Shown: positions 1 to 7,930 of the stretch, piece after piece
How the letters are laid out: each line of letters begins with the position of its first letter
Position numbering within the stretch: position 1 is the stretch's first letter
Program-made: the position numbers and the translations under genes
Notes under the pieces: model-generated
What the model saw: only the letters and a program-made list of their open reading frames with translations
What the model was told of the DNA's origin: nothing
Database searches by the model: none
From: Nonlabens ponticola
GTDB taxonomy: Bacteria; Bacteroidota; Bacteroidia; Flavobacteriales; Flavobacteriaceae
Reading direction: 5' to 3'
Length of the DNA stretch: 32,000 bases
NCBI RefSeq assembly: GCF_003966335.1
Contig: NZ_CP034549.1
Span: 2,580,001 to 2,612,000, forward strand

Positions 1-1
1 T

Positions 2-2962
2 ACAGGGATATTTCAAGGTCAAGAAATATGTGAGGCTAACTTTACCGTGTACTCACCAGAATTCTTAGCAAAACAGCAAAATATCGCCTTCAATGAGATA
101 GGATATGGTAACCGTTTAACGCTTACCGAAGGTAATCTAGTAGAGAACGTTCAAAACCTTCAATTAGCAAATGGTTTAAAGCCTAGTGAACGTAGCGAGA
201 TAGACAGAAACCATTTAGATTTTACCATAGAGATGGAAACAGGTACAGGTAAAACCTATGTGTATTTGCGTTCTATTATGGAGTTATACACCAAATATGG
301 TTTTTCAAAACATATTATCGTAGTACCATCAATTCCTATCAAAGAAGGTGTGTATAAATCACTTCAAATCACTGAAGACCATTTCAAGCAATTATATGAT
401 AACCTCAACTACAATTTCTTTATATATGACAGTAGTAAACTGAATGAAGTGCGAGACTTTTCTACCAATGATGGTTTATCCATTATGGTCATTAACATTG
501 ATGCGTTTCGCAAAAGCTTTGAAAATCCAGAAGATGCTAAAAAGAAGGCAAACATCATTCATCGTTATAACGATAAGTTAGGATACAAGCCTTTAGACCT
601 CATCAAAAACACAAATCCAGTAGTGTTTATCGATGAACCTCAAAGTACAATGAGTACACCACTGGCTAAAAAGGCTGTGCAAGGTTTAAATCCGTTGGCT
701 ATTCTTCGTTATTCAGCGACACATAAAGAGAAGGTGAATTTAATGTACAAGCTGGATGCAGTAGATGCCTATGACAAAAAGCTGGTAAAGCAAATAGAAG
801 TAGGTTCTATACAGACTGAAGGTATGAATAATCAAGCGTACATACGTTTATTAGAAGTTCGCTCAAGGCGAAATACAATAGAAGCTCGTGTTGAGGTAGA
901 TGTAATGCAAGGTGGAAGCATTCAACGAGTCAAAAAATGGGTAAAGCAAAACCAAGACCTAGAAGAACTTACAGGACGTATTGAATATGAAGGCTACATC
1001 ATCAAAGATATTTACGTAGCCGATGAATACATCGATTTTACAAGTCGTGATGGAGAATTAAAGGTTGGTGAAGCTATTGGTAGTGTAGATGATAAACAAA
1101 TTAAGACCGCTTTGATAAGTAAAACAATCGAAGCACATTTGGATAAGGAATTAGTGCTCAATCCGCAAGGAATAAAGGTGCTCAGTTTATTCTTTATTGA
1201 TTCCGTAGGTAAATATCGAGTGTATGATGAAGAAGGAAATGCCTCTCTAGGGGAATACGCAGAAATTTTTGAAAAGGAATACCAAAAGCTCATCAAGAAA
1301 ACCAAGTATGCAAGCCTGTTTGGAGAAATGAAAGATGTTGAAGTAGATGCTTCAGAAGTTCACAATGGTTATTTTTCTATTGATAAGAAAAGTAAAGCGA
1401 GTAACAAAAAAGAGAAGTTTGAATACTTCAAGGATACCACTGGTAAAGTGAATGCAGATGAGTATACCTATAATCTTATTATGCGTGATAAGGAAAAGTT
1501 ACTGAGTTTTGATTCTAAGTTGCGTTTTATCTTTTCGCACTCAGCATTAAAAGAAGGATGGGATAATCCTAATGTGTTCCAGATATGTACGTTGAAGGAT
1601 GCTGGTAATTCAGACATTAGAAGAAGACAGGAAATTGGTCGAGGTTTACGATTATGCGTAAACCAAGATGGAGAACGTGTATATGGCTTTGAAACCAATA
1701 CATTAACCGTAATGGCTACAGAATCTTATGTGGATTTTGTAGATAACCTTCAGAAGGAAATTGAAGCCGATACAGGAATTAAATTCGGAATTCTGGAATC
1801 ACACAGTTTTAATAATGTCGTTATGAGTATCGATGGTGATGAGGTAGAATATTTAGGTCAAGAAAAATCAGAACAACTTTATGACTTCCTCATCCTAAAA
1901 GGATACATCGATATGAGAGGTAAAGTACAAGATTTACTGCGTATTGCTATAAAAGATGATGCAGTAGAACTTCCTGAAGAATTTACTGAAAGTGAACACG
2001 TAGAAAATCAAATCTTAAGTAATTTAAAAGCAGCAGCTGGAAAACTTCAGATTAAGAATCAGGACGATAAGAAGAAAGTACGAGTAAACAAACGAGTACT
2101 TAACAGTCCAGAATTCAAAGAACTTTGGGAGCGAGTAAAGTATAAGACTACATTCTCAGTAGATTTTGATTCAGATAGCTTAGTGAAGGAGTGTATTAGA
2201 GCTCTAGACGATAGATTAAAGATTACTAGAGGGAAGCTTCATTATACTAAAGTTAAGGTCGCTATGAGTATCGGAGGACTTCAAGTCAATGAAGACCCAA
2301 CTACTTATTTTGAGAATGTTAAAGACGAAGTTGAGGTATTGCCAGATATTGTAGGATACCTTCAAAATGAAACTCAATTAACACGCAAGTCTATTGTTAA
2401 GATACTCACAGAAACCAATAAGTTGGGCTACTTTAAAATAAATCCGCAAAAGTTTATTGAAGGTTGCATTGATATCATTAATGAGCAAATGCGTTTACAT
2501 ATTGTAGATGGTATTCAATACAAAAAGATAGGAGATTCTGAATATTACAGTCAGGAACTTTTTGAAAACGAAGAGCTTTTCGGTTACTTAAAAAGCAACC
2601 TCAGCGAAAGCGAAAAATCACCTTATGATTACGTAGTCTATGATTCAACCGTAGAGTCAAAACTAGCCAATGATTTTGAGAATAGTGATAATATTCCGGT
2701 ATACGCAAAACTCCCAAACTGGTTTAAAATTGACACACCATTAGGAACCTACAATCCAGATTGGGCTATCCTCTGGAAAGATGGCGATGATGAGAAGCTA
2801 TACTTTGTGGTAGAATCCAAAGGAACAACCCTATTCGGTGATTTAAGACCTAAAGAACAAGGTAAAATAGATTGTGGTAAAAAGCATTTCAAAGCTTTAG
2901 ATACAGAAATGATTGTAGCTGCAAGTATGGAGGATGTAACTAATCAGGCTTTGATGGCGTAA
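2..2962 (+). CDS. res: Type III restriction enzyme Res subunit (SF2 helicase plus C-terminal PD-(D/E)xK endonuclease), 5'-partial at the window edge
   Basis: The frame is open from nt 2 (TGIFQGQEICEANFT precedes the GTG at 47), so the gene starts upstream. Helicase motifs are EMETGTGKT (I), FIDEPQ (II), RYSATH (III), KEGWDNPNVFQICTL and QEIGRGLR (VI). C-terminal YNPDW...FVVESKG fits a PD...ExK nuclease. The IEMETGTGKTYVYLR / EGWDNPNVF pair is characteristic of Type III Res proteins. Stop is TAA at 2960-2962. Confidence 0.85.
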   Translation, partial: TGIFQGQEICEANFTVYSPEFLAKQQNIAFNEIGYGNRLTLTEGNLVENVQNLQLANGLKPSERSEIDRNHLDFTIEMETGTGKTYVYLRSIMELYTKYGFSKHIIVVPSIPIKEGVYKSLQITEDHFKQLYDNLNYNFFIYDSSKLNEVRDFSTNDGLSIMVINIDAFRKSFENPEDAKKKANIIHRYNDKLGYKPLDLIKNTNPVVFIDEPQSTMSTPLAKKAVQGLNPLAILRYSATHKEKVNLMYKLDAVDAYDKKLVKQIEVGSIQTEGMNNQAYIRLLEVRSRRNTIEARVEVDVMQGGSIQRVKKWVKQNQDLEELTGRIEYEGYIIKDIYVADEYIDFTSRDGELKVGEAIGSVDDKQIKTALISKTIEAHLDKELVLNPQGIKVLSLFFIDSVGKYRVYDEEGNASLGEYAEIFEKEYQKLIKKTKYASLFGEMKDVEVDASEVHNGYFSIDKKSKASNKKEKFEYFKDTTGKVNADEYTYNLIMRDKEKLLSFDSKLRFIFSHSALKEGWDNPNVFQICTLKDAGNSDIRRRQEIGRGLRLCVNQDGERVYGFETNTLTVMATESYVDFVDNLQKEIEADTGIKFGILESHSFNNVVMSIDGDEVEYLGQEKSEQLYDFLILKGYIDMRGKVQDLLRIAIKDDAVELPEEFTESEHVENQILSNLKAAAGKLQIKNQDDKKKVRVNKRVLNSPEFKELWERVKYKTTFSVDFDSDSLVKECIRALDDRLKITRGKLHYTKVKVAMSIGGLQVNEDPTTYFENVKDEVEVLPDIVGYLQNETQLTRKSIVKILTETNKLGYFKINPQKFIEGCIDIINEQMRLHIVDGIQYKKIGDSEYYSQELFENEELFGYLKSNLSESEKSPYDYVVYDSTVESKLANDFENSDNIPVYAKLPNWFKIDTPLGTYNPDWAILWKDGDDEKLYFVVESKGTTLFGDLRPKEQGKIDCGKKHFKALDTEMIVAASMEDVTNQALMA

Positions 2963-2971
2963 TTTGAAACT

Positions 2972-3550
2972 ATGGAAAAACCAGTAAAAGAAATTAAGGA
3001 GAATTATGCTAAGTATGAGGAGTTATTAGTGAACACTAAGAACACCTCAACAAAAGTTATAGTTCTTGATGAAATTAAAGGAAATCACAAAAATACCAGA
3101 GTTAAAAAAGTGGATGTGGAGCACACTTCCATTCCTGAAACATTGGAATTGATTGTGGAATCTAAGATTGAAAATAAAAAAGATTTTAAATTCAAACTTA
3201 GAGCACCTGAATATACTGGCATACCATTTTTTAGATTCGATTCTGATGGTGTAGCACATTACAATCGAATGCCAGATGTAGAATTACCAAAACAAAAAGT
3301 TGATACACCTCATTTTCATAAGTATGATGATGGAGGTAGAAACATAGCATACAAAACCGAATCATTAAAAAAAGAGACTGAAAAAGAAGCTTTATTGAAT
3401 GATATTAGTTTGTGTATGGCTCATTATTGTGATGAGTCTCAGACTTTTTACAATACTGATAAATATGTCGAAATCGTCCAGACTCCACCTACTGAAATGG
3501 ATTTCGATAGTAATAATGATAACCCAACCGAAGGCGTAGAATATGACTAA
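2972..3550 (+). CDS. Hypothetical protein, 192 aa (cassette gene 1)
   Basis: ATG lies 9 nt after the res stop and the 3' end overlaps the next gene by 8 nt. The N-terminal third is Lys/Glu-rich. The centre carries a His-containing block, FFRFDSDGVAHYN-x17-TPHFHKYDDGG. The C-terminal tail is acidic (TEMDFDSNNDNPTEGVEYD). I cannot assign a family. Confidence 0.6.
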   Translation: MEKPVKEIKENYAKYEELLVNTKNTSTKVIVLDEIKGNHKNTRVKKVDVEHTSIPETLELIVESKIENKKDFKFKLRAPEYTGIPFFRFDSDGVAHYNRMPDVELPKQKVDTPHFHKYDDGGRNIAYKTESLKKETEKEALLNDISLCMAHYCDESQTFYNTDKYVEIVQTPPTEMDFDSNNDNPTEGVEYD

Positions 3551-4370
3551 TCTAGAAAAAATAGTAATGAATGTTCGTCAATGCTTTGACCAATTATGGT
3601 CTTTCAAGCTTAGGGGAACAGACACCATAGAAATAAGTACACCATACTCAACTACCACAAGCAAGTTCGTTTCCATATATGTTACTGAAAGAGGTGGTAA
3701 GTTTATAGTTTCAGATGGAGGGCTTCTTAACAGTGAAGCGTACGAATCTGAAATTGACTATGAGAACCAATGTCTTCTAAAAATATTATATCATTTTGAG
3801 GCGTTTTATGAAGTAAAAAGAACTCAGGATAAAAAAGGCGTAAAGCATTATTACATGACTACTCAGAAAGAAAACCTCATTCCGAATATGGTTTATGAAA
3901 TGGCTCAGTTTGTTTCTATGTGCGCCTCAGCTGCAACAGTTCAATTTGAAGACCCAAAAGAAATAGAAGAAAGGAATAGTTTTAGGACTAAAGCAACTTC
4001 TTATATCAGTAGTAACTTCAAGAAGTATGAGCCTAAATTCAGAGCACCTTTAGATAAGGAGGAATTTCGTTCAGTAAGATTTAGTGTATTAATGGAGAGA
4101 CGAAATAGATTAAACCTTATTAGCTATGTAACAGGTTCTACCGCTGCTAATTTCAGAAATAGCATTGCGAGAGCCAATATGAATTTTGAGATAGCCAGCG
4201 CATCTAAATACAATGACTACATTGATAATAAAATAGTACTCGTAAATAATACCGCAGATGGTTTTGTGCTCAAACAGATAGGGAAGCAACTTAACATTTT
4301 GGAAGAACATACAGGTCAGGAAGCTGTTCAATGGTCTGAACGTGAGAAGTTATTAGCAGTTTTAAATTAG
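3543..4370 (+). CDS. Hypothetical protein, 275 aa (cassette gene 2), possibly DUF1828/DUF1829-like
   Basis: The start overlaps the upstream stop (ATGACTAA). The N-terminal pattern W.F.....DTIEISTPY......FVSIYVTERGGKFIVSDGG resembles what I remember of DUF1828 (TPF..h.D.I.IYV....g.y.lSDdG). This is unverified. No catalytic motif was recognised. Confidence 0.6.
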   Translation: MTNLEKIVMNVRQCFDQLWSFKLRGTDTIEISTPYSTTTSKFVSIYVTERGGKFIVSDGGLLNSEAYESEIDYENQCLLKILYHFEAFYEVKRTQDKKGVKHYYMTTQKENLIPNMVYEMAQFVSMCASAATVQFEDPKEIEERNSFRTKATSYISSNFKKYEPKFRAPLDKEEFRSVRFSVLMERRNRLNLISYVTGSTAANFRNSIARANMNFEIASASKYNDYIDNKIVLVNNTADGFVLKQIGKQLNILEEHTGQEAVQWSEREKLLAVLN

Positions 4371-4375
4371 ATTTT

Positions 4376-6118
4376 ATGACACTTAAATCCATTGAAATAC
4401 GAAATGTAAAAGGAATTGAACACAAGAAATTTGATTTAGATATTGTAGCAAATAAACCCAGCCTTCTTGTAGCTCCCAATGGTTTTGGAAAGAGTTCATT
4501 TACTTGTGGATTTAGTTCAATGAATAACGCTCGTATTGTTTTAAAAGATGAGGATAGATTTCGTGGAGATAACAATAATCATCCAATAATAAACATTGTT
4601 TATGAAAAAGAAGCTGGTAATATACTGAGCTTGTCAGCTACTCACGAATCAAATACTATCAAAGATGAATTTGATTATTTTACTATAAAAAGTACTTTAA
4701 AAGCTAAAGGTTCAGCGTCATTTTATGGTGGAGGTGCTACAGCAAGAATGATTATTGAGACAGTTGTGCTTATTGACACAATACCTCCAAATAGAAACTT
4801 TAATAATTATACAGTAACCGAATTGAGGCAAAGATTTGGAGGATGTGGTAGAGTTTTACCAAATCCAAATGTGGTTTTTGCCAATAGATTATTGGTAGAA
4901 AGACTTTCAGAAAACTATACAACTTTATCAAGAGGTTTTGGTCAGCAGGTAACCAATCGCATCCAGTTGATTATTGATGAAGTGAATGAACAGAATGGTA
5001 CTGCTGCTCAATTAAAGAATTGGATAAACGCAAATTGTATTGAAAGACTCAGGGAAATTAATCACCTATCAACATTAGCAGAAATAATCGGAAATTTTGA
5101 TATTGGTCAGGATAGTGAAGTAGATAACTTTTTATTAGCAATCCAAGTTATTTGGATTTACAATAGGGATGTAGATGCGTTTAAAGCTGCTTGTAAGTAT
5201 AGTAATTATAGAATGGCGAAAGATGAATTTGATATGAACCTTAGCCATTTTGATTCAACTTGGAAAAATATACGCACAACTCAAGAACAAGGAAGGTTGT
5301 TGTTAAAGTTCCCCAGAGCTAATGAAATATCCAATGGGCAGCGTGATATATTATCATTCATAGCTATGCTGTTTAAGGCTAAAATCAAGCTTCGGAAAAA
5401 TGCTAGTATTCTAATTATAGATGAGGTTTTCGATTATTTAGATGATGCTAATTTAGTTGCAGCTCAATATTACGTCACCAATTTTATTAAGGAGTATAAA
5501 GATAAAGGGAGGAAAATATATCCATTGATATTAACTCATTTAAATCCGCTCTATTTTAAAAACTATACTTTCAGTAATCAAAAAACTTATTATTTGGATA
5601 AATCATCAATGCAAGTTATTGATAGTATGAGGCGATTAATTGTTAATCGTAATGATGTCAATATTGCAGATGTAGTTTCTTCAAGACTATTGCATTATCA
5701 CCCAGAAGCTCCTGATAAAAGAGAAGAATTTAGAAACTTGAATATACGTGAGCTTTGGGGTGTTGGAACTACATTTAGAGATTTCACATTTGAGCAAGTA
5801 CAAAATTATATAGAAAATAATGCCTATGACCCTTTTGCAGTATGCTGCGGAGTTCGTGTAAAAGTAGAAATGCTTACTTATGCTAAAATTGATGATGATA
5901 ATAATAGAACCGAATTTTTGACAACAAAGAAAACAAGACCAAAATTAGATTTCGCAAAATCAATAGGTATTATATCACCTGAACCCTATTACCTTTTAGC
6001 AGTAATTTATAATGAAGGGATGCATTGGAAAAATAATGTTGATAATGTTTCACCAATCGCTTCCAAACTTGAAAATCTCACGATTAAGAAAATTATTTCT
6101 GACCTTTTCCAAGCTTAA
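4376..6118 (+). CDS. ABC/SMC-fold (AAA15/AAA21/PrrC-like) ATPase with a ~190-aa uncharacterised C-terminal domain (cassette gene 3)
   Basis: ATG lies 5 nt after the upstream stop. The N-terminus MTLKSIEIRNVKGI...F.L is typical of RecF/SMC-type ATPases. Walker A is APNGFGKSS (aa 33-41, nt 4472-4498). The signature-like motif is SNGQRDILSF, Walker B/D-loop is ILIIDEVFDYLDD, and the H-loop is LILTHLN. The C-terminal domain has R494-x3-E498 and NEGMH550. Confidence 0.8.
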   Translation: MTLKSIEIRNVKGIEHKKFDLDIVANKPSLLVAPNGFGKSSFTCGFSSMNNARIVLKDEDRFRGDNNNHPIINIVYEKEAGNILSLSATHESNTIKDEFDYFTIKSTLKAKGSASFYGGGATARMIIETVVLIDTIPPNRNFNNYTVTELRQRFGGCGRVLPNPNVVFANRLLVERLSENYTTLSRGFGQQVTNRIQLIIDEVNEQNGTAAQLKNWINANCIERLREINHLSTLAEIIGNFDIGQDSEVDNFLLAIQVIWIYNRDVDAFKAACKYSNYRMAKDEFDMNLSHFDSTWKNIRTTQEQGRLLLKFPRANEISNGQRDILSFIAMLFKAKIKLRKNASILIIDEVFDYLDDANLVAAQYYVTNFIKEYKDKGRKIYPLILTHLNPLYFKNYTFSNQKTYYLDKSSMQVIDSMRRLIVNRNDVNIADVVSSRLLHYHPEAPDKREEFRNLNIRELWGVGTTFRDFTFEQVQNYIENNAYDPFAVCCGVRVKVEMLTYAKIDDDNNRTEFLTTKKTRPKLDFAKSIGIISPEPYYLLAVIYNEGMHWKNNVDNVSPIASKLENLTIKKIISDLFQA

Positions 6119-6153
6119 AACTACAATTTAGTTCTGTTTTTCTTTCAAATTAA

Positions 6154-6197
6154 TTTTATAACAAATCGCTAACTAATGTTTGCAATTTGTTATAAAA
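6154..6197. repeat. 13-bp perfect inverted repeat (TTTTATAACAAAT / ATTTGTTATAAAA) with an 18-nt spacer. It could be a weak AT-rich terminator of the cassette or an operator/recombinase site.
   Basis: Arms at 6154-6166 and 6185-6197 were read directly. It sits 36 nt after the ATPase stop and 50 nt before the ATG at 6247. Confidence 0.5.
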
Positions 6198-6246
6198 ACC
6201 TGGTTATTTGTACTTTACAATATTTGAAAGGCAAAAAATCAGAATT

Positions 6247-6546
6247 ATGGAAATCGCAAAAATAATTTTAGGACAAATTAAATATCTAGATAAAATGGCA
6301 CTTATGGCTTGGGGAGCTAGAAACTTTGTAGCACTACCAAAGTCAAAAGAATTTCAAGGTGGTTTACGATTCAAAGTAAATGGTCTTAAACATCAAGGTT
6401 GGGTTACTATAGAGCTTACATATTTAGATGAGTACACGGTAACTTTTATTAATGAAGATGTTGAGGTGGTGAAAGTTCGTCACGGTGTTTATTGTGATAT
6501 GCTTGTAGATGTAATAGACTACATTGAGGGTAAAGAAGCGGCTTAA
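6247..6546 (+). CDS. Hypothetical small protein, 99 aa, translationally coupled to the serine recombinase
   Basis: The ORF track starts at TTG 6208. The in-frame ATG at 6247 (MEIAKIILGQ...) is more plausible. The stop TAA overlaps the recombinase ATG (TAATG at 6544-6548). No recognisable motif. Confidence 0.55.
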   Translation: MEIAKIILGQIKYLDKMALMAWGARNFVALPKSKEFQGGLRFKVNGLKHQGWVTIELTYLDEYTVTFINEDVEVVKVRHGVYCDMLVDVIDYIEGKEAA

Positions 6547-7262
6547 TGAAACAGTTCGTAGCATATTACAGAGTCAGTACGCAAAAGCAAGGGAAATCTG
6601 GGCTTGGTCTTCAAGCTCAGAAAAATGCTGTACTTCATCATACTGGAAGCAAAGGTGAAATCATAGGTGAGTTCACCGAAGTTGAAACAGGAACTCGTAA
6701 AAAGAAGCGCAAAGAAATCTATAAAGCTATTGATTTAGCTAAAAAAGAAAAAGCTACTCTAGTCGTTGCCAAGTTAGATAGACTTTCGAGAGATGTAGAG
6801 TTTACATCGGCTCTCTTTAATGGAGGTATTGATTTTGTTTGTTGTGACAATCCAGAAGCCAATAAACTTACGATTCAATTACTGTCGGTAATTGCAGAAC
6901 ACGAAGCATCGGTCATTTCAACTAGGATTAAAGATGCTCTAAGGGTTAAAAAGGAAAAAATTGCCAGAGGTGACTACACTAATAAGGATGGTTCTCAAAT
7001 GAAAATGGTAAATGGCAAAGTTCGTTTAGGTAACCCGAACGGCTTTGGTGAGTACCAAAAATTAGGAGTTGAGAAGATTAAAGAGAACGCTAGGAACAAT
7101 AAGGCTAACATACAAGCCAAAGACATCATTTGTTCTGCTCGTAAAGAGGGCTTAACCTACCAACAAATAGCCGATAAATTAAATAAATTACAATATACAA
7201 CTAGAACAGGAAAGCAGTTTCACGCCACACAGGTACAAAGATTACATAAAAGGTGTATTTAG
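6546..7262 (+). CDS. Small serine recombinase (resolvase/invertase family) with a C-terminal HTH
   Basis: N-terminal YYRVSTQKQ carries the catalytic Ser context. LVVAKLDRLSRD is a resolvase core motif, followed by VIAEHE. The C-terminal LTYQQIADKLN...TRTGKQFHATQVQRL fits a helix-turn-helix. At 238 aa it is too short for a large serine integrase. Confidence 0.85.
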   Translation: MKQFVAYYRVSTQKQGKSGLGLQAQKNAVLHHTGSKGEIIGEFTEVETGTRKKKRKEIYKAIDLAKKEKATLVVAKLDRLSRDVEFTSALFNGGIDFVCCDNPEANKLTIQLLSVIAEHEASVISTRIKDALRVKKEKIARGDYTNKDGSQMKMVNGKVRLGNPNGFGEYQKLGVEKIKENARNNKANIQAKDIICSARKEGLTYQQIADKLNKLQYTTRTGKQFHATQVQRLHKRCI

Positions 7263-7389
7263 ATATAACACTTCTATATTTATGAATCTATTTCACCATT
7301 CATCACCTGCCTTTACCAAAAGGTATTTGGACATCCGACAAGAGGAGTTGGATGATATTTACATGAGCCTTTAGTACAACTCTATTTGG

Positions 7390-7422
7390 ATGACTGGACA
7401 TGATAAAACCAAGTCCAGTCAT
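7390..7422. terminator. Hairpin between the convergent recombinase gene and the 69-aa ORF (10-bp perfect stem, 13-nt loop)
   Basis: ATGACTGGAC (7390-7399) pairs with GTCCAGTCAT (7413-7422). There is no strong T-tract, so terminator function is uncertain. Confidence 0.35.
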
Positions 7423-7447
7423 GCATATTAATAATGCAAAGTCTCGC

Positions 7448-7898: not shown

Positions 7899-7930
7899 AA
7901 AGCTCGATTTTCAGTAGAAAATCGAGCTTT
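7899..7930 (+). terminator. Intrinsic-terminator-like hairpin (13-bp perfect stem, 6-nt loop) in non-coding island-border DNA
   Basis: AAAGCTCGATTTT (7899-7911) pairs with AAAATCGAGCTTT (7918-7930), followed by TGTATTTT. No convincing upstream gene on the + strand. Confidence 0.4.

Follow-up and report, generated by a model that had tools for sequence, protein, structure and literature searches.

In the 32,000 nucleotides of the Nonlabens ponticola genome analysed here (contig NZ_CP034549.1, positions 2,580,001 to 2,612,000; hereafter the window), three genes that we call g1, g2 and g3 follow res, the restriction subunit gene of a Type III restriction-modification (R-M) system. They had been predicted from the sequence to form a single, undescribed R-M-linked defence module, and we considered them together with their relatives in external loci collected for comparison, which are labelled L followed by a number. 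The res gene (47..2962, + strand) is the anchor of the operon. Its product is a full-length Type III Res protein with helicase motifs and a C-terminal endonuclease domain, since the PADLOC model REase_III (1.4e-302) spans residues 9-953; Pfam RE_endonuc (7e-36) and ResIII (3.9e-11) are matched as well. The modification gene (mod) lies upstream of the window, hence beyond its edge. In the Algibacter locus L004, whose res is 92% identical to that of the window, res is preceded by an SNF2 helicase gene, a DUF4391 gene and mod. The array SNF2-family helicase (~1,056 aa)-DUF4391-Mod-Res was seen in L004 (478-9420) and in L009 (501-9420), and the same array is probably present upstream of the window.

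Behind res, all on the + strand, come g1 (192 aa, 2972..3550) and g2 (275 aa, 3543..4370), which make up a two-gene pair with DUF6978-like and DUF1828-like products respectively, and g3 (4376..6118), which encodes a stand-alone ABC/SMC-type ATPase of 580 aa with a C-terminal domain of its own. Read from the sequence, the stop codon of res (TAA) is separated from the ATG of g1 by 9 nt (TTTGAAACT), g1 and g2 overlap by 8 nt (ATGACTAA), and the stop codon of g2 (TAG) is followed by 5 nt (ATTTT) and the ATG of g3. The open reading frames and spacings given in the original prediction were therefore confirmed. Its picture of a single tight array also held: no terminator-like site was found on the + strand between 1 and 6118, and res-g1-g2-g3 are probably co-transcribed. 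This co-directional array ends at an AT-rich inverted repeat between g3 and the next open reading frame, orf112 (6154..6197, assigned to neither strand; 20-nt arms, 4-nt loop, 90% complementarity). The repeat has no T-run after it and was not scored as an intrinsic terminator, and its function as a terminator is not established.

Distribution of the three genes across genomes

A g2 profile was used to scan one genome per species, which gave 29 loci, and the IMG/VR collection, which gave 40 viral contigs. For g3, we collected 97 loci (window included), 56 of them with at least 2 kb of upstream sequence. Many of the metagenomic contigs are short, and the IMG/VR loci include many near-identical copies. 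In the species-level scan, g1 stands immediately upstream of g2 in 28 of the 29 loci, the 29th being cut by the end of its contig, and g3 accompanies them in one only, Algibacter L004. All 40 IMG/VR contigs carry both g1 and g2, and none carries g3. When the loci are pooled, g1 is directly upstream of g2 in 70/70 g2 loci and g3 is present in 2/70; conversely, g1-g2 lies upstream of g3 in 2/56 g3 loci, namely the window and L004. L004 is not independent evidence for an association of the three genes because its res makes it the nearest relative of the window. The families also differ in size, with more than 2,224 homologous clusters for g3, 74 for g2 and 61 for g1.

Related Type III res genes are followed by all three combinations. 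The window and L004 have Res-g1-g2-g3. Locus L033 has GmrSD-Mod-Res-g3 without the pair, its g3 being 67% identical to that of the window. L009 has SNF2-DUF4391-Mod-Res-g1-g2, and there a 420-aa protein and two GmrSD-type genes take the place of g3. These comparative data are strong evidence for modular insertion.

The co-conservation expected of one module thus failed, and on co-occurrence we rejected the trio as a single system. As one system, it would have the ATPase as its sensor or motor and g1 and g2 as effectors, in the manner of Septu, Gabija or PARIS. The tight packing without a terminator, the recurrence of the gene order in L004 and the fact that the nearest structural kin of g3 are PtuA ATPases, which use a small nuclease partner, all speak for it. 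Against these stand the two counts above, the occurrence of each module alone behind related res genes (L033, L009), the highly variable neighbours of g3, among which there is no conserved partner, and the domain content of g1 and g2. Indeed, neither Pfam nor PADLOC detected an HNH domain in g1 or g2, so that the PtuA-PtuB composition of Septu is not reproduced, and no Toprim or DUF4435 domain was found in g1, g2 or g3 with Pfam, PADLOC or NCBIfam, which separates them from Gabija, PARIS and OLD; in this respect the partner genes are as the original prediction had described them. We consider a one-system trio highly improbable. It is, by contrast, quite probable that g1-g2 and g3 are two independent modules lying side by side.

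We therefore suggest that g1-g2 and g3 be studied separately, as a cloned "trio" would amount to two systems tested at once. In the explanation that we favour, the stretch 3' of res would be a slot for variable cargo in an R-M island gained by horizontal transfer, and would hold two accessory modules. The locus is an example of an R-M operon that can take up exchangeable defence cargo at its 3' end, here and elsewhere g1-g2, g3, GmrSD, KAP and TIR genes. More generally, the defence neighbourhood anticipated by the original prediction was found: kin of the three genes elsewhere lie overwhelmingly beside R-M or other defence genes and mobile elements.

The two-gene unit g1-g2

Family alignments revealed invariant residues in both proteins: G93, H96-x-N98, T112-P-H114, G122 and Y127 in g1, and W19, E30, T33-P34, D58-G-G60, E140, G198-S199 and W264 in g2. 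In PADLOC, g1 matched PDC-M24A (6.5e-5, profile positions 33-118 of 146) and g2 matched PDC-M24B (3.6e-5, profile positions 16-72 of 255). These matches are weak and partial, reciprocal and specific. PDC-M24A was matched by 9 of 21 g1 family members, two PDC-M24B models were matched by 12 and 4 of 21 g2 members (12-16/21 overall), and no other PADLOC family was matched by any of these g1 and g2 members. The Pfam links agree with the PADLOC assignment, two g1 members matching DUF6978 and some g2 members DUF1828, for which the g2 of the window scored 0.007. Sequence searches of PDB chains gave nothing meaningful for g1 or for g2, and no functional data on PDC-M24, DUF6978 or DUF1828 were found in the literature.

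The PDC systems are "guilt-by-embedding" candidates taken from inside BREX, DISARM and Type I R-M loci, and PDC-M24 is one of them, a cassette of two genes (FAM_00129>>FAM_00065) with 153 counted occurrences, put forward as a prediction only (Payne et al. 2024, bioRxiv 10.1101/2024.01.29.577857). The likeness extends beyond the profile matches. Both units consist of two genes in the same order, g1 corresponding to the A model and g2 to the B models; the adjacent and co-directional A-then-B arrangement is seen in 70/70 loci; and both are embedded in or next to R-M systems, which in the case of g1-g2 are of Type III, Type I and Type IIG. The difference is one of distance, since the Bacteroidota and prophage clade of g1-g2 is a remote branch and may escape a routine run of PADLOC. 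From these alignments and profiles, g1-g2 appears to be a distant relative of PDC-M24, that is, a remote Bacteroidota/prophage branch of an already catalogued candidate and not a wholly undescribed system. The earlier statement that the trio fits no named system can consequently be kept in part: PADLOC v2.0.0, Pfam and NCBIfam assign none of the three genes to a named defence system, but the pair has its weak match to this candidate.

The contexts of g1-g2 are diverse. The pair follows a Type I HsdR gene in L006, L007, L028 and L045, precedes a helix-turn-helix (HTH) gene in HTH-HsdM-HsdS-HsdR arrays in L010, L014 and L016, and follows an MmeI-like Type IIG enzyme and a TIR protein in L005. 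Other loci place it beside NACHT and KAP NTPase genes or behind the DUF3987 primase of an integrative element (L013, L015, L016), and in Larkinella and Hymenobacter it stands alone. The IMG/VR contigs are genuine prophages, with RecT, RecE and Erf-like neighbours, an integrase in L078 and a tape-measure protein in L081. The pair lies at prophage ends, as host genes are found within 1-2 kb. It is also present in an isolated temperate phage, Bacteroides phage BS-TP3, where gp25 is the g1 homologue (hidden Markov model E-value 2e-58) and gp24 the g2 homologue (2e-87, annotated as a DUF1828 protein); both genes belong to the lysogeny module, between repressor and integrase.

Considering these contexts, we propose that g1-g2 would be a fixed two-gene unit travelling among R-M operons, integrative elements and the lysogeny modules of temperate Bacteroidota phages. 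It might act as a self-contained toxin-antitoxin-like or abortive-infection-type anti-phage module, in which g1, by virtue of its invariant H-x-N...T-P-H residues, would be the likelier catalytic or metal-binding partner. For a role of the pair in defence or exclusion the balance is somewhat favourable. The pair could alternatively serve the phage or mobile element instead of the host, by superinfection exclusion, as an addiction module or in lysogeny control, its presence in R-M operons then being hitch-hiking. This would agree with the 40 of 69 external loci that are IMG/VR viral contigs, with the recombination genes, integrase and prophage ends nearby and the lysogeny module of BS-TP3, and with an overlapping two-gene layout that is typical of toxin-antitoxin pairs. 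In many chromosomal loci, however, the pair is part of an R-M operon or stands at its end, and phage genes are absent from the surroundings; Pfam, PADLOC, NCBIfam and PDB sequence searches found no homology to known toxins, antitoxins or repressors. As superinfection exclusion by a prophage may at the same time be host defence, this alternative would refine more than contradict a defence role; as an account that leaves out the host we find it unlikely. Either way, g1-g2 extends the candidate PDC-M24 into Bacteroidota and temperate gut Bacteroides phages, where it could shape phage-phage and phage-host competition.

The ATPase g3 and its C-terminal domain

The last gene carries the complete ABC/SMC ATPase motif set announced by the original prediction, and this set does not vary among 26 diverse homologues, the most distant of them 30% identical. 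It comprises the Walker A motif APNGFGKSS (residues 33-41; 4472..4498, + strand), with A33, P34, N35, G36, G38 and K39 invariant; the signature SNGQRD (319-324) and the Walker B/D-loop IIDEVFDYLDD (345-356), together at 5330..5443 on the + strand, with S319, N320, G321, R323, D324, I348, D349, E350, F352, D353, Y354, L355 and D356 invariant; and the H-loop T387-H388, likewise invariant. The order of the motifs and the fold of the head place g3 among the ABC/SMC-type ATPases. An identical protein is on record from Nonlabens ponticola. The >2,224 clusters of the family were defined at 90% identity, and its members are typically 53-57% identical, in Bacteroidota and also in Planktothrix (cyanobacteria).

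The AlphaFold2 model of g3 (mean predicted local distance difference test score, pLDDT, 83.6) consists of an ABC head, a helical insert at ~147-290 and an all-helical C-terminal domain at ~405-580. Against the PDB, Foldseek returned, in this order, PtuA of retron Eco7/Ec78 and of Septu, the heads of cohesin, SMC5/6 and Rad50, RecF, and GajA. For full-length g3 these matches had a probability of ~1 and a template modelling (TM) score of ~0.3, only the head being matched. Searches with sequence profiles were as unspecific: among the 26 diverse members, PADLOC gave scattered generic ABC-ATPase matches (mad3, mad8, PtuA, AriA, LmuB, AbiLi and PDC-S46; best 1e-10), Pfam gave SMC_N only, below threshold, and NCBIfam gave no family above its cut-off, with weak sub-threshold ATPase matches only.

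The C-terminal all-alpha domain (residues 405-580; 5588..6118, + strand), a putative effector or regulatory domain, is confined to the C-terminus of proteins of ~575-620 aa, in a fixed architecture that comprises 341 clusters at 50% identity. R425, H440, R494-x3-E498 and K523 are invariant, and Y545-N546-x3-H550 is near-invariant, even in a Brochothrix plasmid protein of 30% identity. Judged by this conservation, the invariant R/H/R/E/K and the near-invariant H look catalytic more than structural. The domain was modelled alone with a pLDDT of 88.4. No significant structural match was obtained with Foldseek against the PDB and BFVD, and a sequence search of PDB chains gave nothing meaningful. 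The best-superposing sub-threshold matches are the HEPN proteins HepT (7bxo and 6m6w; TM 0.34-0.42, root-mean-square deviation ~6 Å), Cas13bt3 and Las1, all with E >1; several others are helical regulators of TetR/GntR type. The spacing N546-x3-H550 is that of the HEPN motif R[NDH]xxxH, but with Tyr in the place of Arg (Y-N-E-G-M-H in the window), and HEPN families that have lost this Arg have been described (PMC3710099). An apparent Rx4H motif, RLLHYH (residues 435-440), was rejected, as its R varies and only H440 is invariant. On the strength of the model and of this motif, HEPN membership of the domain is a lead, not a finding, and we would name a metal-independent (HEPN-like) RNase only tentatively.

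R-M subunits of Type I, IIG or III are encoded within the three upstream same-strand genes in at least 13 of the 56 g3 loci, a lower bound given that the R-M genes of metagenomic loci were annotated with a small seed set. HsdS is directly upstream of g3 in 7 loci. Six further loci, which were spot-checked, contain PLD-SNF2 helicase and Eco57I-type methylase, Mrr-helicase, KAP NTPase or nSTAND NTPase genes, and the Planktothrix g3 is found in a toxin-antitoxin and MmeI island. The gene is also carried by three plasmids and 8 IMG/VR contigs; none was found in isolated phage genomes. Going by these neighbourhoods, g3 thus behaves as a self-contained single-gene module that prefers the 3' end of restriction operons.

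A conserved partner of g3 was rejected, because the neighbours vary, some loci have none, and none is general. Several recurrent neighbours were nevertheless seen locally. In 7 loci (L034 6488-6982, L036 6487-6981, L088, L089, L093, L103 and L113), the gene for a 164-aa protein with a CxxC...CxC zinc-finger-like motif precedes the g3 homologue by ~19 nt; the protein is 85% identical between two unrelated assemblies, has no Pfam match and may be an optional g3 partner in one sub-clade. An AraC-like protein of 275 aa is next to g3 in 5 loci. In a sub-clade ~45-47% identical to the g3 of the window (L124, L125, L126, L140), a gene of ~270 codons without Pfam match overlaps or abuts the g3 stop codon, and its product may be a clade-specific partner. 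L036 also encodes (5928-6476), between hsdS and the 164-aa protein and g3, a 182-aa protein with the canonical HEPN-type motif R-N-E-F-A-H, so that this slot of the Type I R-M operon holds one more accessory gene. Finally, the 3' end of the g3 homologue is overlapped by a small open reading frame of 43 aa in L001 (9718-9849) and of 51 aa in L034 (8727-8882), and the first 20 residues of the two are 75% identical; they are most likely conserved g3 coding sequence in another frame.

Among known systems, g3 resembles most closely those in which an ABC ATPase is joined to an effector. PrrC and RloC combine an ABC ATPase with a C-terminal HEPN RNase (PMC3710099), and g3 matches this description of the architecture: one protein chain joins a Rad50/SbcC-like ABC ATPase at its N-terminus to an all-helical domain at its C-terminus, in which R, E and H are conserved. 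Its gene is likewise habitually found inside R-M operons or at their end, the fusion being fixed in the 341 clusters and the R-M embedding observed in 13/56 loci. PrrC itself is embedded in a Type Ic R-M locus. The differences are that g3 lacks the canonical Arg of Rx4-6H (its motif is Y-N-[ED]-x-x-H, keeping H550 and N546 with Y545 at the Arg position), that its acidic residue lies in R-x3-E and not in E-x3-[KR], that its structural similarity to HEPN proteins is below significance, and that it accompanies R-M systems of Type I, IIG and III but often none at all.

With Septu PtuA, which is also the ATPase of the type I-A retrons Eco7/Ec78, g3 shares an ABC head with a helical insertion, PtuA being the best structural match of the g3 model; weak PADLOC PtuA matches lie at the Walker A region. 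PtuA, however, works with the HNH nuclease PtuB, whereas g3 has no conserved partner and has an extra C-terminal domain of its own, and the structural similarity is restricted to the head (TM ~0.3). The matches of g3 to AriA, GajA and ATPase-Toprim proteins are limited to the ATPase core. HEC-04 is an ABC ATPase with a C-terminal effector that was found embedded in another defence system and is active alone (Payne et al. 2024). The concept of g3, an ABC ATPase fused to a C-terminal effector, putative in g3, is the same as in HEC-04 and OLD, but there the effector is a Toprim nuclease (alpha/beta), whereas the C-terminal domain of g3 is all-alpha without a Toprim signature. The trio belongs to none of Septu, Gabija, PARIS, OLD and PrrC/RloC; g3 is an unmodelled family within a known kind, the ABC ATPases fused to or paired with an effector and embedded in other defence systems.

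We suggest that g3 could work like PrrC, RloC or HEC-04, its ATPase being a nucleotide- or nucleic-acid-sensing switch that would restrain the C-terminal effector until infection. This effector may be a metal-independent HEPN-like RNase. Because g3 is habitually found where R-M operons end, it may form a second line of defence after restriction, and we hold it fairly likely that g3 is an anti-phage or abortive-infection protein. The gene might also be no immune effector at all, with an ATPase of repair or chromosome maintenance (RecF/RecN/SbcC-like), or a restriction accessory, whose C-terminal domain is a non-catalytic interaction or DNA-binding module. The sub-threshold SMC_N hit, its only Pfam match, would fit, as would the structural neighbours Rad50, SMC heads and RecF, the lack of a significant nuclease match for the C-terminal domain and its several sub-threshold TetR/GntR-type matches. 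Housekeeping repair genes, on the other hand, do not show the patchy and mobile spread of g3 over plasmids, prophage-like contigs and variable defence-island positions across phyla, at ~55% identity. Attachment to three R-M types and to non-R-M defence genes makes a cofactor dedicated to one enzyme unlikely, and the pattern of invariant residues in the domain has a catalytic more than a structural appearance. We regard the repair or accessory role as improbable.

Several points weigh against two independent modules of anti-phage defence as we propose them. The argument for a defence role is, for both modules, one of genomic context only, and PDC-M24 is itself a prediction, to which the pair is linked by weak matches (E ~2e-5 to 7e-5) of partial coverage in only about half of the members. 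The tight spacing of the genes (9 nt, 8-nt overlap, 5 nt) is compatible with functional coupling in this lineage. About two thirds of the sampled g3 loci contain no R-M or defence gene recognised by the limited seed set, and no PrrC or RloC model is among the PADLOC matches listed for g3 (25 of 38 families, 26 members). The HEPN-like idea, finally, has to do without the canonical Arg of Rx4-6H and without significant Foldseek or sequence support.

What can be said of g3 irrespective of its function is that it represents a very widespread ABC-ATPase family without a name, whose C-terminal domain is conserved and apparently catalytic and whose genes recurrently adjoin restriction operons; its more than 2,000 clusters at 90% identity cover Bacteroidota, Cyanobacteria, Proteobacteria and Firmicutes. 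Were g3 shown to be an effector that guards R-M systems, the PrrC paradigm would be generalised beyond one E. coli Type Ic system. In the furthest-reaching version, which we think rather unlikely, the g3 family would be a large group of single-protein immune sensors that guard Type I, IIG and III enzymes and fire when a phage disables restriction, its C-terminal domain being a new effector fold or an Arg-less HEPN derivative, and g1-g2 would be in parallel a prophage-disseminated system with a new His-based catalytic protein. Such a guard role would make g3 a broader analogue of the single known case, PrrC-EcoprrI.

Composition and right-hand end of the island

The GC content is 35.5% in res, 32.1% in g1, 34.9% in g2 and 31.7% in g3. 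The genes g1-g3 had been described as more AT-rich than res, which is weakly so, their GC content being ~3 points lower; the value of 38-40% given for res was too high, and the actual step in composition lies at the boundary of the island. Indeed, the block 1-7262, which contains res, g1, g2, g3, orf112 and a recombinase gene, has 34.1% GC versus 40.4% in the rest of the window, taken as 8223-32000, and GC at third codon positions (GC3) is 0.22-0.30 in the island genes versus 0.44-0.48 in the next three genes. This step means that foreignness marks the whole R-M island and not a cassette inside it; by its base composition the entire island looks horizontally acquired. As a sign of secondary insertion into the R-M locus, the GC content is weak, and we rejected it as evidence because res and the cassette differ by only ~3 points; it is the comparative evidence for modular insertion that is strong. 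A retron, non-coding RNA or tRNA explanation of the locus was likewise rejected, as there were no Rfam or tRNA matches and no reverse transcriptase was seen.

On its right-hand side the low-GC island ends with orf112 (6208-6546) and a small serine recombinase gene (6546-7262; Pfam Resolvase 4.1e-22), both on the + strand. The same two genes also close the Res-g1-g2-GmrSD island of Flavobacterium tyrosinilyticum (L009 16455-17535), and serine recombinases adjoin g3 or g1-g2 in L033, L022, L045, L036, L041/42 and the Brochothrix plasmid. Cargo may be swapped between the R-M operon and the adjoining serine recombinase. Two more hairpins were seen 3' of the recombinase gene, at 7384-7428 and 7899-7930; the latter has 14 perfect pairs and is the sole strong terminator-like site on the + strand in the first 8 kb.

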